From positions 16,668 to 80,667 of the forward strand of contig SDNP01000011.1 of assembly GCA_004524445.1 (NCBI GenBank): a DNA stretch of 64,000 nucleotides, read 5' to 3'. Origin of the DNA: Candidatus Thorarchaeota archaeon (lineage in GTDB: Archaea > Asgardarchaeota > Thorarchaeia > Thorarchaeales > Thorarchaeaceae). A program made the translations under genes and the position numbers. The notes under the pieces were generated by a model. That model worked only from the letters and a program-made list of their open reading frames with translations, was not told the origin of the DNA and ran no database searches. Of the stretch, positions 28,883 to 46,363 are shown in pieces. Every line of letters begins with the position of its first letter. Within the stretch, counting starts at the first letter, position 1.

Positions 28883-29563
28883 TTAACTAGATGATTCAGG
28901 CCTCTTGGTTTTTTTGTAGTAGTCACAAATTGAGCGTAGAAAGCAAATATCACATTTTGGTGATCGAGCCTTACAAATTTCTCTTCCGTGTTTCACAAGA
29001 TTGTGATTTAGAGAATAGATGCAGTTTTCGGGAATAATCTCCTCAAGGAGAGGCTGGGCCTGCTCTCGGGAAGTATTGTGGGAAATCAGACCCAGTCTTT
29101 TTGTAACTCTCCAAACGTGCGTATCAACAGGAAGGGTGGGTTTCCCAAAGCAGAATAATAGCACAATAGAGGCAGTCTTTGGGCCTACTCCATGAAGCGA
29201 AGTCAACCAGTCCAAGGCCTCATCTCTATCCATGTGGTCTAGAAGGCCGATATCGAGTCCACCTACACGCTGTTTAATTTCTCCTAAAGATGCCTGGATC
29301 CGTTCTGCCTTGATGCGGAAGAACCCCGAAGAACGAATCGTATCTGCAACTTCTGATTGAGGAGCCTCTAGGACTTCCTCCCACGTGTCATAGGCTTCCT
29401 TCAGGGCGTGGTAACCTCTATACATATTCACATTGGATGTGTTCTGGCTAAGAATTGTCAAAACCAACTCGTCAATGGGAGGCAGGTTTCTTTCTACAAC
29501 CACATCACCATAATGGTCTATGAGTTGTCTACATACGGTTTCTGCCTTGGATTTGAAATCGAT
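28883..29563 (-). CDS. nth: endonuclease III (HhH-GPD, 4Fe-4S)
   Basis: ILSQNTS, LHGVGPKTA, VDTHV.RV, CKARSPKCDICFLRSIC; homology extends upstream of the track start 29503 to an ATC at 29563 with a GGAGGA SD. Confidence 0.92.
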   Translation of the reverse strand: MDFKSKAETVCRQLIDHYGDVVVERNLPPIDELVLTILSQNTSNVNMYRGYHALKEAYDTWEEVLEAPQSEVADTIRSSGFFRIKAERIQASLGEIKQRVGGLDIGLLDHMDRDEALDWLTSLHGVGPKTASIVLLFCFGKPTLPVDTHVWRVTKRLGLISHNTSREQAQPLLEEIIPENCIYSLNHNLVKHGREICKARSPKCDICFLRSICDYYKKTKRPESSS

Positions 29564-29652
29564 ACTAGGTTCCTCCTTTACTCCATGCTATCGTCAGATG
29601 TCTATTCAGAAACGTTTAGTTAAGGGTAATATCAGTTATCTTTTGATTCACG

Positions 29653-33889: not shown

Positions 33890-34651
33890 CTACTCGTCAT
33901 CTTCCCAGTCGAAATCATCCACATCGTCAAAGGCATGAGGCATCTTTTTCATGGTATGGCGTAATCCCTTCAGACTCTTCAAGTGCTTCAGGTTGCTCAT
34001 CGCAGATGCTACAGCTTGGGAGATTTGAGGACCAATATTCGCCAACCCAGGAATTCCTGAAATACCGCCTGGGCCCACTCTCAAGGTCCGTCTGCCCTTC
34101 CCGCCAATCTCAACCCCCGAATCAGTGACATGTACTAGCTTATCATCTGATAACACAGAAACTAGCTCATCTCTGACAAACACCAACTTGTCAGTTTCCA
34201 CAACCAGTATGATTTCTTTGTGCTGGTCGGATTTTCCTAGAAAGACCATTCCCCTTTTCAGAGAGATGTCAGATTTGCCGCCATTGATTGAGAAATGTAT
34301 TCTTGATTTAGCGTGCTCTAAGAAGCCTTCAGCAGAATCGTGTCCAGCGATAGGAAAGTCGTTTTGTGATGCCTCCCTAGAGAGGTCTTGGAGACCACCG
34401 CTGCCTAGTAGAATTTGAATGCCTGAGAGGGTACCAGTGGTTGATTCGCCCATGGCACCATCTTCAGTTTCAATGATTGCATCCACTGCGTAGCTGCTTG
34501 CTCCTCCAAACGCTATCCCAACTCTCTTGTCATCATCAAGAAGATAACACCAAAGAGAATTTTTCTCCAACAGTACATAGGCCTTCTTATGGTCTAAGAC
34601 GTTGTAATCCTGATTTGTAACGTATACTTTGCTGTCAGTTGTTAAGGTCAT
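33890..34651 (-). CDS. hypothetical protein, translationally coupled to the upstream ArsR-like gene
   Basis: TAATG stop/start overlap at 34651; beta-rich, acidic tail. Confidence 0.7.
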   Translation of the reverse strand: MTLTTDSKVYVTNQDYNVLDHKKAYVLLEKNSLWCYLLDDDKRVGIAFGGASSYAVDAIIETEDGAMGESTTGTLSGIQILLGSGGLQDLSREASQNDFPIAGHDSAEGFLEHAKSRIHFSINGGKSDISLKRGMVFLGKSDQHKEIILVVETDKLVFVRDELVSVLSDDKLVHVTDSGVEIGGKGRRTLRVGPGGISGIPGLANIGPQISQAVASAMSNLKHLKSLKGLRHTMKKMPHAFDDVDDFDWEDDE

Positions 34652-35457
34652 TAGAATTCCTCCTCGTCAGAAAAATCAATTTCTACTTCGCCTTCACGAG
34701 TTTCAGAATTTTCTACAGACTCCTCATCATCCTCAGGCGGAGAGTCTTTGGCTTTTCCATTCTTATTCCGTTCTTGTTCCAAGCGACTCGTCAACCATTG
34801 AGCTAGGCGGTATGCCAGACGTCCCTCCACCGTCACGTAGTAGGTACCGCGGACTTCGCCCTTTATCACATATCCAGCATCCAAGAGCGGATTCAGGTGA
34901 TGTGTCAGAGAGCTTCCTGTTTTACCGGTATAATTCTCCAACTCATTGAAGGTCTTGCTTCCATCTTTGAGAAATTTCAGGATGTTCAGTCGCTCTTCAC
35001 TACCTAGAGGACTGATCACCTCTGCAACCCTGTCGGGAGGAATGTTCTCAATATCCTTTCTCCTAGCGCTTCTGCCGCGCCTTCGCATGGATATTTGAGG
35101 AAACTTGAAACTGGCATCGATTCCCTCTATGCCCCGCATAGACGCTTCGATCTGCTCTCCAAGACCCTCCATCATGTGCTCAAGGCTCTCGGTTAACCCC
35201 GAAAGATCAACATAAGGATTGGGAGGATGTGGAGGCCTTGGCGCTTTATGATGTCTTCTTGTCTTCGCTATTCGTTCACGCCGAGTCTTTTGGCTCCGCA
35301 CTTCATCTATTTCTTCCTTCAAGGTCTCCTTGAGGCGTCTTACCTCTTCGAGCTCCTTCTTTATTTCGTCAACGCTTGAAGAAGTGGTATTCTCTTGTTG
35401 GGATTCAAAATCCTCCGAGCGTGAGCCATTTTCTTCATCATTATTCCGTCCAAACAT
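34651..35457 (-). CDS. ArsR-family wHTH regulator with N-terminal coiled coil
   Basis: LGSEERLNILKFL..GSKTFNEL...GSSLTHHLNPLLDAGYVIK...GTYYVT.EG. Confidence 0.85.
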   Translation of the reverse strand: MFGRNNDEENGSRSEDFESQQENTTSSSVDEIKKELEEVRRLKETLKEEIDEVRSQKTRRERIAKTRRHHKAPRPPHPPNPYVDLSGLTESLEHMMEGLGEQIEASMRGIEGIDASFKFPQISMRRRGRSARRKDIENIPPDRVAEVISPLGSEERLNILKFLKDGSKTFNELENYTGKTGSSLTHHLNPLLDAGYVIKGEVRGTYYVTVEGRLAYRLAQWLTSRLEQERNKNGKAKDSPPEDDEESVENSETREGEVEIDFSDEEEF

Positions 35458-35481: not shown

Positions 35482-35502
35482 TACATTTACCATATAAATG
35501 TA
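35482..35502. promoter_or_regulatory. perfect 8-5-8 inverted repeat over the TATA box of the ArsR-like gene
   Basis: TACATTTA-CCATA-TAAATGTA; the minus strand contains TTTATATG. Confidence 0.6.
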
Positions 35503-35664
35503 TCTTTTTACACCAAACTCCGGAACGCTTCGTGATGATTTAATGAAAGTACGGTTAGAAATAGAGAAACCTATGTTGTGTCCAGGTGTTTAATCTGCCG
35601 AAAATATTCTTAAAAGCAACTGAAAACACTGAAAGAGCCTCGAATTTTGAGGAGTGTGTAAACA

Positions 35665-35865
35665 CTGGCTAAAAAGAAAAAGAAAGTAGAATATCCAACC
35701 TTCATTGTGAAGAGTGCAATAAAGGAATTTGCAAAAATGAATGATATGATGGTGGGCTCTGACGCTTATGACGCCATCAATGAGAGACTTGGGGAGATGC
35801 TCACAGAGGCAGCAAACCGAACAAAGGAGAACGGAAGAAAGACTCTCAAGGGCTACGACGTATAG
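35665..35865 (+). CDS. histone-fold protein (short alpha3, DUF1931/face-to-face-like) with Lys-rich N-tail; CTG start; not in ORF track
   Basis: (M)AKKKKKVEYPTFIVKSAIKEFAKMNDMMVGSDAYDAINERLGEMLTEAANRTKENGRKTLKGYDV; A..R...NGRKT....D histone L2/alpha3 motif; GAGGAG SD. Confidence 0.88.
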   Translation: MAKKKKKVEYPTFIVKSAIKEFAKMNDMMVGSDAYDAINERLGEMLTEAANRTKENGRKTLKGYDV

Positions 35866-35887
35866 GCCTGCTAAGTACATACTGAAT

Positions 35888-35909
35888 GGCAGCAGGGAAA
35901 CTTGCTGCC
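35888..35909 (+). terminator. GAAA-tetraloop hairpin 3' of the histone gene
   Basis: ggcagcagg-gaaa-cttgctgcc. Confidence 0.55.
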
Positions 35910-35946
35910 GCCACTTTCTAATTCTGTTTAATTATCCCCTAGTGAC

Positions 35947-36870
35947 CTACGATTGTTCGATGCCTGCTTTTTTCAGAAGATAGTCAAATACGCTCTTCCA
36001 TATCTTAGCATCATCGCGGGCCTTATTCTCGAAATTGTTGATATTAACGAACCTCTCTAGTGCTCTTTCCGCTTCTTCAGGAAACTCATCCTTACTAATC
36101 GACGAAAGGTAGTCCAATTCAACCAGCGCCTCTTGAATCTTCTTGGACACATGCCCCTCGATATCTAAGAGATCACTTGGGTCTTCTCTACTCAGGAGCG
36201 TCATATCGTAGAGGTCAAAGATTCGCTCTAGCTCGCGAATGGGGTGCGGATGGTCGTCCACTCGAACATCAACATATCTATCATTGCCCCCTTCATAGCC
36301 TCCGGCCTCTCTAACCACCAAAATGGCAGCAGATTGTTTTCCCCTTCTATCACCGCCGGCAGCTTGCCCCGCTTTAAGAGCTGCGAAGAGTTTGTCAATG
36401 AGATCTCCAGACTTGCGCTCATACGCCTTGCTCATATCACCAACCACATCTCGGCCGGCGAGAATGTTTCCTTGGCAGCAGTATCCATCACCAATGATGT
36501 GTCCAGCCCATTCCATACATTCGGACCCTGTATGAACAGCAACGTTGCCTGATGTGTCAACAATTCCGACCTGTCTGTGTTCCGACCCTTGGTCTTGACC
36601 CAGCAACAGATTGAGGGTTTCTTGTGCAGACTTCCCTTCTGACAAATACTGCAACCCATCAGGACCATAAGCTGCATTAGCCCATGCCTGAGTTGCAATG
36701 GCGCCGACATTGGCTTTTGCCCATGGTACTATTGCACCTACAGCAGGGAATTTGGACTGGACAATAATACCTAGGTCTCCATTGTCCGGGTCTCTTGCCA
36801 CTAGAGAAAACGTAGACGGTCTTGCAGATGCATTATGGGGGATTCTTTTGTCCATCATCATAGTCTCCAA
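35947..36870 (-). CDS. DUF1028 (Ntn-hydrolase-like) protein with C-terminal PG-binding-like domain
   Basis: STFSLVARDP, GAIATQ, RQVGIVD, QGNILAG, GGDRRGKQSAA, RVDDHP.P..EL. Confidence 0.92.
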   Translation of the reverse strand: METMMMDKRIPHNASARPSTFSLVARDPDNGDLGIIVQSKFPAVGAIVPWAKANVGAIATQAWANAAYGPDGLQYLSEGKSAQETLNLLLGQDQGSEHRQVGIVDTSGNVAVHTGSECMEWAGHIIGDGYCCQGNILAGRDVVGDMSKAYERKSGDLIDKLFAALKAGQAAGGDRRGKQSAAILVVREAGGYEGGNDRYVDVRVDDHPHPIRELERIFDLYDMTLLSREDPSDLLDIEGHVSKKIQEALVELDYLSSISKDEFPEEAERALERFVNINNFENKARDDAKIWKSVFDYLLKKAGIEQS

Positions 36871-44187: not shown

Positions 44188-45233
44188 CAGTATCTCCTCC
44201 CAACGATTACAAGGTACAGAAACAAAGGCGCACCCAAAAATGATGTCAGAATTCCAACAGGCAGAATGACAGGGGAGAGAATAGTCCTAGCGACACTGTC
44301 AGATACTAGCAATAAGATAGAACCCACAATACAGGATGCGGGCATCAAGAATCTGTCATCGCCCCCGATTGTCTTACGAATGATATGAGGGACCACCAAT
44401 CCGATGAAGCCAATTATACCTGTGAATGAAACGATTAGTGCGGTCACTAAGGAAGCGACAAACAGGCTCGTGATTCTGACTCTTTCTACATCTACTCCTA
44501 GGCTCTTTGCGGTGGCATCTCCACTGACTAGTGCCTTGTAATTCCAGACGTTATAAAGAAAGAAGATGATAGACGGTAGCACAACTATTGCCATAATCGA
44601 CAGCTCATTCCAGGATACTCTGCTTAAATCACCAAACATCCAAAAGACAATAGCAGAGAGCTGCAGATCTTCAGCGAAGTATTTCAAGGATGCGAGTCCT
44701 GCGGTAAATAAGGAGCCAAGAGCAACACCCGATAGAATCATGGTCTCCGGCGATGCCCCCCTATATTTTGCAAGCAGAATGATTATTGCTACCGCAACTA
44801 ATGAAAATCCAAAAGCACAGATAGACACTAGGTACGGAATGCTCTGCAAAGTAGGATTTGTTCCCACCCCTAGCACCACGAATGCGAATGCGGCCCCAAA
44901 GCCTGCAGAATGAGAGATTCCAAGTGTATAAGGAGACCCCAACGGATTCATGAGAATACTCTGCATGACTGCGCCGGCCACTGCCAGACCCATTCCTGCA
45001 AGAATAGCAGCGATTACCCGAGGAAGACGGATATGCCAGATAATGATGCTAGTGGGTCCACTGTCCTGCCCCAATAATATCAGGAAGACCTCGTAGGGAT
45101 CGATTTGGACTGTCCCTATGCAAATGGATGCAATAGCGACTACAATGAGAATAATGAAGCAGAGGAGTAGGAAGAGGGTCTTCTTTCGAATCTGCCCCAA
45201 GTAAGCATCTATGGTTTTATTGTTGGAGCCCAG
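44184..45233 (-). CDS. FecCD/BtuC-family ABC permease; probable CTG start
   Basis: IRLPR, NPLGSPYTLG, GIIGFIGLVVPH, LPVG; frame extends to CTG at 45233, preceded by AGGTGA. Confidence 0.93.
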   Translation of the reverse strand: MGSNNKTIDAYLGQIRKKTLFLLLCFIILIVVAIASICIGTVQIDPYEVFLILLGQDSGPTSIIIWHIRLPRVIAAILAGMGLAVAGAVMQSILMNPLGSPYTLGISHSAGFGAAFAFVVLGVGTNPTLQSIPYLVSICAFGFSLVAVAIIILLAKYRGASPETMILSGVALGSLFTAGLASLKYFAEDLQLSAIVFWMFGDLSRVSWNELSIMAIVVLPSIIFFLYNVWNYKALVSGDATAKSLGVDVERVRITSLFVASLVTALIVSFTGIIGFIGLVVPHIIRKTIGGDDRFLMPASCIVGSILLLVSDSVARTILSPVILPVGILTSFLGAPLFLYLVIVGRRYW

Positions 45234-46363
45234 AAAAGTTCACCTACTGTATCCAATTGAATCTTTTTGAATCCGCCCATCGCATCCGCCATCTGGTCAT
45301 ATACCGCCTCGCCAACTAAGAAGGAAAAAATCTCATCAGCTTTGGCCTCGGGGTCTATGTCGCTGAATTTTGTTGAATTGAGTGTCTTTCCAACATAGTA
45401 AGCATCTGCAAATACAACACCATGGTTTAACCCGTACCTTGGATAGGGAAACAGACCATAGACCTCACCAGACACGATGGCACTCAAGTTGCTGAATTTG
45501 GGATCCGTGATATCTTCAAGAACTAAAGGCAGGTTGACCTCATCAACGAAGATTATGTCGGGATCCCAATCTATCAGCTGTTCTGCGTCAATCTCAACAG
45601 TATTTGACAACGAGTCAATATCGCCAGCCACGTTCTTAGATTTGGTGAGAACAAAAGGCGGATACGCCCTCTGGGTCATGGTCAATCCAAATGAACCCTT
45701 TCTCGACAGTCCACCAACATACACTGTTGGCTTGGTGTTGTCTGGAATCTCATCTGTTCTCTCTTTGAGATCCTCAGCAAGAGATTTTACGTAGGATATC
45801 ACGTTCCCAGCCCGATTTTCTTTACCCATGATAGCTCCGACAATCCGTAATGACTCATAGAAATCATTGCGGTCATCGCTATAGTTGAGAGGTTCCGACG
45901 CTCCTTCGCCTGGGCGGACTACTACAACGGGAATGAGGGTATTCTCTTGAATCCTATTGGCGTCCTCGGCGGTGTAATATGATGCAACTATCACATCCGG
46001 GGCAAGACTGATAATGACCTCCATATTCACGCTATCGCTGGATTCTATCTCCGTAAGATTGGTCAAGGAAGGCTCAGCAAGCAGATACGGGAGAACATAT
46101 CTCAGTTTAAGGTCAGTTGCACCTCGCCCCACTATCATCTCCGAGCACTCAAGATATACTAAAGTCCGGAGAGCACCAATACCAATCCCCGCAACTCGCT
46201 CAACCTGTTGAGGAACTTCTACTTCTCTTTCCAGAATGTCCGTTATCTGGCGTGGGTCGCCAACCGGATTTGCACTCTGAAGGAGAAGTCCAACACTGAG
46301 AACTGAGATGATAACTATGGACATGATTACTACTGTGGCGGTCAACCCTTTTTTGGTCATCAT
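45209..46363 (-). CDS. iron/cobalamin ABC substrate-binding protein
   Basis: N-terminal anchor, ITDILEREVEVP..VERV, PDVI, EQLIDWDPDIIFVD. Confidence 0.92.
   Translation of the reverse strand: MMTKKGLTATVVIMSIVIISVLSVGLLLQSANPVGDPRQITDILEREVEVPQQVERVAGIGIGALRTLVYLECSEMIVGRGATDLKLRYVLPYLLAEPSLTNLTEIESSDSVNMEVIISLAPDVIVASYYTAEDANRIQENTLIPVVVVRPGEGASEPLNYSDDRNDFYESLRIVGAIMGKENRAGNVISYVKSLAEDLKERTDEIPDNTKPTVYVGGLSRKGSFGLTMTQRAYPPFVLTKSKNVAGDIDSLSNTVEIDAEQLIDWDPDIIFVDEVNLPLVLEDITDPKFSNLSAIVSGEVYGLFPYPRYGLNHGVVFADAYYVGKTLNSTKFSDIDPEAKADEIFSFLVGEAVYDQMADAMGGFKKIQLDTVGELFWAPTIKP

Follow-up and report, generated by a model that had tools for sequence, protein, structure and literature searches.

Introduction

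Histones of the face-to-face (FtF) type constitute the second-largest prokaryotic histone group. They are defined by a closed tetramer, the residues of their profile being R48, N52, R54, T56, and D61, and they have an alpha2 that falls short of the nucleosomal one by 4-5 residues; the term alpha3-truncated applies to a histone fold with an alpha3 of 3-4 residues (Schwab et al., 2024, PMC11390915). According to the same work, bacterial dimer histones are devoid of R48 and N52, and archaeal FtF histones are generally tail-less whereas tails are common in the bacterial ones (Schwab et al., 2024). The tetramer of HLp, from Leptospira perolatii, wraps about 60 bp of DNA, which it contacts via the N-terminal end of alpha1, alpha1 lysines and the L1/L2 loops (Schwab et al., 2024, PMC11390915; Hu et al., 2025, PMC12701072). 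Methylation, and in rare cases acetylation, has been described on the tails of Asgard nucleosomal histones from Lokiarchaeia and Hodarchaeales (bioRxiv 10.64898/2026.07.02.735847). FtF histones are by now well established, and their occurrence in Asgard archaea has already been noted.

Near-cognate initiation is known mainly from eukaryotes and a few bacterial genes, and CUG is a poor start codon in the bacteria tested. No validated CUG start in an archaeon was found in the literature searched. Across prokaryotes, switches from AUG to CUG are very rare, i.e., two out of 61,358 reconstructed AUG starts (PMC5622118), and ribosome profiling in Haloferax pointed to numerous putative alternative starts, of which about 30% lie at near-cognate codons (PMC7261190).

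Here, we describe a histone gene in a stretch of 64,000 nucleotides from a Candidatus Thorarchaeota archaeon, referred to hereafter as the window, which belongs to a metagenome-assembled draft genome of 64 contigs (G000). The explanation favoured below, with some reserve, is that of a tailed FtF histone gene which lost its ancestral ATG to a CTG and would still be translated from that position.

Organisation of the histone locus

The coding sequence extends from 35665 to 35865 on the plus strand, i.e., 66 codons including a CTG at 35665-35667, plus a TAG at 35863-35865, and its frame reads (L/M)AKKKKKVEYPTFIVKS...RKTLKGYDV, where the alanine encoded from 35668 is counted as residue 1. On its 5' side, the frame is closed by an in-frame TAA (35659-35661), followed by the codon ACA and then by the CTG, and neither ATG, GTG nor TTG occurs between this TAA and a GTG at 35707-35709, the next ATG being at 35737-35739. 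The initial annotation, made from the letters alone, had described just such a 66-codon histone-fold frame behind an in-frame TAA, with the CTG as the sole start that keeps AKKKKKVEY, and its coordinates and sequence statements were all found to be accurate. The lysine-rich tail proper, AKKKKKVEYP, is encoded at 35668-35697. The GTG, which has no SD-like element upstream, is the codon of an invariant valine (Val14) and the rival start chosen by gene callers for a product of 52 amino acids, and the ATG at 35737 stands behind a product of 42 amino acids on record (NCBI among the sources), which would lose alpha1. As such, the gene is not strictly unannotated, as had been stated at first, but both of the products held in public records are shortened.

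The histone gene stands alone, in divergent orientation to a gene encoding an ArsR-type regulator (34651-35457, minus strand) and convergent with a minus-strand DUF1028 gene (35947-36870), which ends 38 nt past the 3' hairpin described below. Just upstream of the divergent ArsR-type gene, a segment of about 64 nt with the TATA-like CATATAAATG (35484-35547) differs at three positions between the two species of the genus, with diverged surroundings, and is probably the promoter or operator of that gene.

Fold and family assignment

In the AlphaFold2 (AF2) monomer, with a mean pLDDT of 88.9, alpha1 covers residues 15-24, alpha2 residues 31-54 and a one-turn alpha3 residues 62-64 of 65; alpha2 is thus 24 residues long in the model. 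Residues 1-10, i.e., the tail, are of low confidence (disordered), after which T-F-I-V is ordered. Searched with Foldseek, the model superposes on HLp (9QT0) with a TM-score of 0.91 and 1.1 Å, on HTkC of Thermococcus kodakarensis (9F2C) with a TM-score of 0.90, the rmsd being about 1 Å, and on HBb (Bd0055 of Bdellovibrio bacteriovorus) with a TM-score of 0.87 (range 0.84-0.89), with nucleosomal histones at just about 0.5. When a profile of 36 homologues is compared with PDB sequences, the E-values are 1.5e-15 for 9qt0, 6.4e-15 for 9f2c and 2.9e-8 for HBb. The FtF motif R-x3-N-x-R-x-T-x4-D is complete, and R51, N55, R57, K58, T59, and D64, within a local sequence R57-K58-T59-L-K-G-Y-D64, are invariant across the 36 aligned homologues. 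Because R51/N55/R57/T59/D64 match the spacing of the FtF-defining R48/N52/R54/T56/D61 and are invariant, the protein is, as judged from model and profile, an FtF-type alpha3-truncated histone; it carries the RxTxxxxD motif, which combines the L2 loop clamp and the DNA-binding threonine, as well as the dimer-dimer residues of the FtF profile, R48 and N52, as R51 and N55.

Membership of two neighbouring families can be set aside. For an archaeal nucleosomal histone of the HMf type, the match is below threshold (PF00808, 17.1 bits against a cut-off of 21.4; PF00125, likewise sub-threshold, 16.6 bits) and alpha3 has just three residues. For DUF1931 (PF09123), the pseudodimeric family that includes, e.g., Aq_328 of Aquifex, the match is partial, at positions 21-53 of the 138-position profile, and reaches 12.8 bits against a gathering cut-off of 21.8; "DUF1931 domain-containing" is merely the name that NCBI gives to one homologue. 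Consequently, the initial annotation was right in recognising a truncated-alpha3 histone of the face-to-face type, on which AF2, Foldseek and the profile search agree, and its own proviso, a prediction other than a histone fold, did not materialise, but the label DUF1931-type reflects a naming habit.

Compared with the tetrameric relatives HTkC (9F2C) and HLp (9QT0-2), the window histone shares the fold (TM about 0.9, rmsd about 1 Å), 34-38% identity and the complete R-x3-N-x-R-x-T-x4-D signature, including the two tetramerisation residues. At the positions by which HLp contacts DNA, it offers Lys, Ser or Thr, namely K15-S16-A17, K19, K23, and K58-T59. It differs from both in having RKT rather than RxT and in the addition of a conserved lysine-rich tail, and the window genome further encodes a tail-less FtF paralogue and one nucleosomal histone. 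HBb (8CMP, 8FVX) is likewise alpha3-truncated and has the RKT motif, but identity is only about 21% and the HBb type is without the R48/N52 tetramerisation residues that are invariant here. The Asgard nucleosomal histones HLoB and HMpB also bear a lysine-rich disordered N-terminal tail (bioRxiv 10.64898/2026.07.02.735847), but their alpha3 is complete and their tails span 16-32 residues, against about 10-13 residues in the FtF window protein; the parallel drawn initially with Asgard nucleosomal tails is then apt for lysine richness and not for length.

The modelled monomer fits single chains taken from the crystals of the HLp and HTkC tetramers. By analogy with HLp and HTkC, dimers should close into a ring-shaped (torus) tetramer with about 60 bp of DNA wrapped, to which the five-lysine tail may add non-specific contacts with DNA phosphates.

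Tailed and tail-less paralogues across the family

A search of whole genomes recovered the histone protein in 33 of 40 relatives and separated two subfamilies: (i) a tail-less one, which begins M-S-[FY]-[IV]-V-K, and (ii) a tailed one, which begins MAKKK or MSKKK, followed by 3-10 more residues and then by T-F-x-V-K. Both are present in the window genome, the tail-less copy on another contig. All the tail-less relatives start 2-3 residues before the invariant valine, the one encoded by GTG 35707 in the window. Fourteen tailed loci were found in sister genera, eight of them also near nth, the gene for endonuclease III; the distance between nth and the tailed histone gene is 6.7-10.8 kb in nine genomes, that of the window included, and 16 kb in a further one (G008). 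On grounds of sequence and position, the window gene corresponds, as a positional orthologue, to the tailed FtF paralogue that the Thorarchaeota-type family has retained.

At all 14 orthologous loci, which belong to other genera, the reading is ATG-GCN/TCN-AAR-AAR where the window has CTG-GCT-AAA-AAG, behind a shared SD-like motif. The conservation of tail and start position that the initial annotation wished to see checked is therefore borne out: the CTG sits exactly at the ATG of the orthologues, the tailed genes of sister genera keep the lysine-rich tail as coding sequence, and the case that it had feared, homologues that all begin at IVKS, is contradicted by the existence of tailed orthologues starting with ATG. 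These ATG-bearing orthologues are called at full length by gene callers (64-73 amino acids), so that the suggested systematic loss or truncation in annotations applies to this genus, where the callers shorten the gene, and not to its relatives. At the Val14 codon, most of the ATG-bearing orthologues have GTG and five have GTA or GTC.

Several observations on the other histone genes can be added. The tail-less FtF paralogue of the window genome has 56 amino acids, begins MSYIVKK (G000:C62, L002:1498-1668, minus strand) and has a copy in the sister species (L069); both species of the genus start it with a TTG, preceded by GAGGTG, whereas the tail-less genes of nine other genera start with ATG. 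The single nucleosomal histone (PF00808, 55 bits; G000:C27, L034:1465-1710; orthologues L070-L087) has a short basic N-terminus, (M)PRSRKDR, and in most genera with a readable start it opens with a conserved TTG-CCN-CGN rather than with ATG; in the window genome, the listed start is a GTG three codons 5' of the conserved TTG. Beyond the family of the window, in another family of the same phylum (G032), two FtF-type histone genes (L093 and L094) begin MAKKAATEALFVKSK and MAKKTAKNEPLFVKSK, i.e., with short MAKK tails. Scanning metagenomes for further close relatives, by exact pattern or by protein, returned none, and the scan of the genome collection gave the sister species only.

Comparison of the two species of the genus

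At the DNA level, comparison within the genus involves two genomes, namely that of the window (G000) and, from an independent co-assembly, that of G001, the one further species of this genus that the collection contains. The latter also has the CTG, with identical SD and spacer. In the histone core, about 17 synonymous differences separate the two, against 2 non-synonymous ones. From the SD through codon 14, a length of 60 nt, they share every base except at one codon-sized gap, a 3-nt in-frame deletion in a slippage-prone A-rich run that leaves the tail of G001 one lysine codon shorter and is the sole tail difference; of the 18 nt that separate the promoter block from the SD, 8 have changed. 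With 0 synonymous differences where about 4-5 are expected, the tail-coding DNA is more alike than coding needs, and an RNA-level constraint on the leader is therefore possible.

As the ATG of the orthologues and their SD-like element align there, and most of them have TATA-like boxes at a comparable distance upstream, the window CTG is, on the strength of the alignment, a former ATG, mutated in the ancestor of the genus. Because the core differs so much more at synonymous than at non-synonymous sites and the stretch from SD to tail is identical, the gene is to be regarded as alive, under purifying selection in a lineage that has had the CTG since before the species split. The protein cluster comprises five sequence variants on about nine contigs, all called from the GTG (52 amino acids) or the ATG (42 amino acids), and so none has a canonical start upstream.

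Leader and 3' end of the gene

A putative promoter block lies at 35591-35621 on the plus strand, some 50 nt ahead of the start position, and includes a TATA-like element (about 35607-35617); it shows one difference between G000 and G001 (35599, G/T) while its flanks diverge. In the orthologues, boxes of the TTATTAA/TTATAAATAA type are located about 45-55 nt before the ATG in eight cases and about 90 nt in two. The SD-like GAGGAG (35649-35654), 10 nt before the CTG, is identical in G001; its AGGAG is complementary to the 16S 3' end ...CACCUCCU, and a GAGG(T/A/G)G-type element precedes the start by 6-14 nt in nearly all orthologues. Within the 5' UTR, a predicted stem, CCUCGA/UUGAGG with a 3-nt loop (35638-35652, where 35638-35643 pair with 35647-35652), pairs the SD with an upstream anti-SD; in G001, its last two pairs are changed from GA to AG with the pairing kept. 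SD-pairing stems are predicted in most orthologues as well (45 nt before the start, L003-L017), which suggests that translation of these histone genes may generally be throttled.

In this genus, a second predicted stem, of 5 bp with a GUAA loop (35653-35666), takes in the TAA together with the C and T of the CTG. An Rfam match to the C/D-box snoRNA SNORD19B over the leader and tail region (35634-35711, plus strand) scored 29.5 bits against a gathering threshold of 50 (E 0.013) and was taken as chance. At the 16S rRNA 3' end of the window genome (G000:C9, L033:3040-3151), the Rfam archaeal SSU match stops at L033:3087 and the anti-SD end ...TCACCTCCT comes about 60 nt further on; the rRNA stretch near the 3' end reads as if it carried insertions.

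Past the stop codon by 22 nt, a hairpin GGCAGCAGG / GAAA / CTTGCTGCC (35888-35909, plus strand) has 9 pairs, one of them G-U, and is worth -16 kcal/mol when folded alone. G001 has the same hairpin, base for base, between flanks that diverge. A single hairpin of -12.7 kcal/mol or stronger occurs 11-35 nt after the stop at 21 of the 25 FtF genes of the family, tailed and tail-less alike, against a background of 7% among 200 random long ORFs of the window genome. Their stems differ in sequence around a conserved GCNGC/GCUGC core, with four of seven core pairs compensatory, and their loops vary across the family. Thus, the 9-bp hairpin with a GAAA loop pointed out initially is indeed there, but it is the hairpin that is conserved and not the GNRA loop, GAAA being found in this genus only. 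Downstream of the nucleosomal histone gene, a clean single hairpin was not found.

The window hairpin is followed by a pyrimidine-rich tract (CTTTCT, TTCTGTTT; 35910-35935) and is not called by a bacterial-type terminator scan, its tail CCACTTTCTAATTCTGTTT failing the T-run rule; most hairpins of the family precede a T- or C-rich run, with T5-T9 in many orthologues. From this distribution, we infer a family-wide 3'-end element of FtF histone mRNAs, in termination and/or protection against 3' decay, and the GC-rich hairpin past the stop would act here as a terminator and/or as a block to decay from the 3' end.

Where translation starts

In both species, no in-frame canonical start precedes the conserved N-terminus, the CTG takes the place of the start of the orthologues, and the SD stands at the orthologous distance from it. 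Given that promoter, 5' UTR stem, SD-like element and tail frame would all have been kept since the ATG turned into CTG in the ancestor of the genus, translation most likely still begins at the CTG position. That the tail is still made from CUG thus appears the best reading of the comparison, held with a little more than even confidence; of the initial proposal of CTG initiation, the alignment with the ATG of the orthologues behind an SD is solid, and initiation itself is a matter of comparative deduction.

The foremost competitor would have the start moved to GTG 35707, giving a 52-residue tail-less histone whose old tail codons, SD and hairpins are kept as a regulatory leader. In its favour, the GTG is the only canonical start that keeps alpha1 and the one picked by gene callers, and the genome already has a functional tail-less FtF paralogue. 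On the claim made at first that this start would cut into alpha1, the model disagrees, as alpha1 covers residues 15-24 and Val14 just precedes it; what the GTG start would do is delete T-F-I, which is both ordered and conserved, and put another residue in place of Val14, invariant in the family. None of the 36 homologues starts closer than 2-3 residues to this valine, and all keep an aromatic residue plus Ile/Val, which are ordered in the model; this favours CUG. So does the SD, which lies 52 nt from the GTG and is unable to serve it, yet is perfectly kept at the orthologous distance from the CTG; SDs are found at a minority of starts in this genome, so their absence before the GTG is not decisive. 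The absence of any substitution in the tail DNA exceeds what coding alone predicts and would suit a leader, but the sole length change between the species, in a slippage-prone A-rich run, is one whole codon and hence in frame, as befits a translated tail. Lastly, CUG is favoured because the same genus shows other weakened starts, namely the TTG of the tail-less paralogue and, in the window genome, the ATC in nth. A start at GTG is thus the less probable reading, at something like one chance in four.

Less probable again, and at best a minor contender, is the use of both starts, CUG for a minor tailed isoform and GUG for a tail-less one. Both codons are kept in both species, and the many putative alternative start sites of Haloferax, with their share of about 30% near-cognate (PMC7261190), offer a precedent, but most ATG-bearing orthologues also have GTG at the valine with no sign of dual use, and five have GTA or GTC.

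That the gene is a pseudogene, dying from the loss of its start codon, is very unlikely: a canonical start is absent indeed, but the two CTG-bearing species are separated by about 17 synonymous against only 2 non-synonymous core changes, the FtF signature residues are all intact, and promoter, SD and 3' hairpin are conserved. With a draft genome assembled from metagenome data, one might suspect that the CTG is a misassembled or misread ATG, but this is practically discounted by the identical CTG in an independent assembly of another species and by about nine public contigs with five protein variants, all with shortened calls.

Returning to initiation at CUG, the initiator Met-tRNA would read the near-cognate codon behind the SD, and the complete protein with its tail would be made, though at a rate below that of an ATG. 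An unusual initiator tRNA was considered and rejected, as the A1-type tRNA-Met has a normal CAU anticodon; with this anticodon, a CUG start is a first-position mismatch and would insert Met, the removal of which gives the AKKKK N-terminus of the relatives. The expected tailed N-terminus of the mature protein is (Ac-)AKKKKKVEYPTF..., and that of the GTG-start product M/V-KSAIKEF. Reinitiation via mini-ORFs before the CTG (TTG 35647 ... TAA; GTG-TAA 35656) is at most a remote possibility, since the orthologues do not share them and no SD stands at a suitable distance from either.

Elsewhere in the genome, a second gene was noted for its start. In nth (28883-29587, minus strand), no ATG, GTG or TTG occurs between the TAG at 29590-29588 and a GTG at codon 29, and AAGGAGGA-N7-ATC (29563) precedes the conserved N-terminal helix (region 29503-29590, minus strand). 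The nth of the sister species has a TTG two codons past that ATC position and is without the GTG, and in other genera the gene starts close by, with ATG or TTG. A second near-cognate start thus seems to be implied. A CTG in the gene of a FecCD-type permease (45233; 45200-45239, minus strand, behind AGGTGA-N6) was rejected as a parallel case, because a normal N-terminus, just past the stop of the upstream gene, is obtained from a TTG some 11 codons further on.

Genome-wide, tests based on motifs and on duplex energy detected no enrichment of SDs before CTG, ATC, ATT, ATA, and ACG relative to other codons, their power being low with SDs at fewer than a quarter of first ATGs and a noisy ORF set. 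Across 80 kb of synteny between G000 and G001, no convincing further near-cognate case emerged, the two genomes being too similar for the extent of the alignment to discriminate. Both outcomes weigh against initiation at CUG, as do the rarity of AUG-to-CUG switches among prokaryotes and the excess identity of the tail-coding DNA.

Significance for Asgard histones

FtF histones themselves are known, and the tailed archaeal paralogue and the ATG-to-CTG switch are modest novelties. What seems to be new is (i) a conserved tailed FtF paralogue in the Thorarchaeota-type family, with MAKK-tailed genes in at least one further Asgard family, (ii) a lineage-specific switch from ATG to CTG with a consequence for annotation, and (iii) a family-wide 3' hairpin of FtF histone genes; no mention of the tailed archaeal paralogue, the switch or the hairpin was found in the literature searched. 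In practical terms, since the records for the genus hold just the fragments of 52 and 42 amino acids, surveys of Asgard histones would score the gene as tail-less, broken or absent, and a check for conserved coding sequence 5' of the called start would recover it.

An AUG-to-CUG change held under purifying selection through speciation is rare. With respect to near-cognate CUG initiation elsewhere, the case presented here is deduced by comparison, and has a CUG at a conserved start position, behind an SD, in front of a protein under purifying selection. If true, it would be a natural archaeal case of a use of near-cognate starts that is otherwise associated with eukaryotes. The window gene is also a clean natural test of whether archaeal initiation, the factors of which are shared with eukaryotes, can work from CUG. 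More speculatively, with an FtF histone made from CUG and nth from AUC, SD-backed near-cognate initiation could be a selected setting of protein dose; the change from ATG to TTG in the tail-less FtF paralogue of the same genus would fit a lowered dose of FtF histone, so that both FtF histones might be lowered relative to the nucleosomal one, a proposal that we hold as tentative and rather less probable than initiation at CUG itself.

For the family, the whole Thorarchaeota-type group keeps tailed and tail-less FtF paralogues beside one nucleosomal histone. Among the closest relatives of eukaryotes, then, the lysine tails that serve as substrate for histone marks are encoded in FtF as well as in nucleosomal histones.
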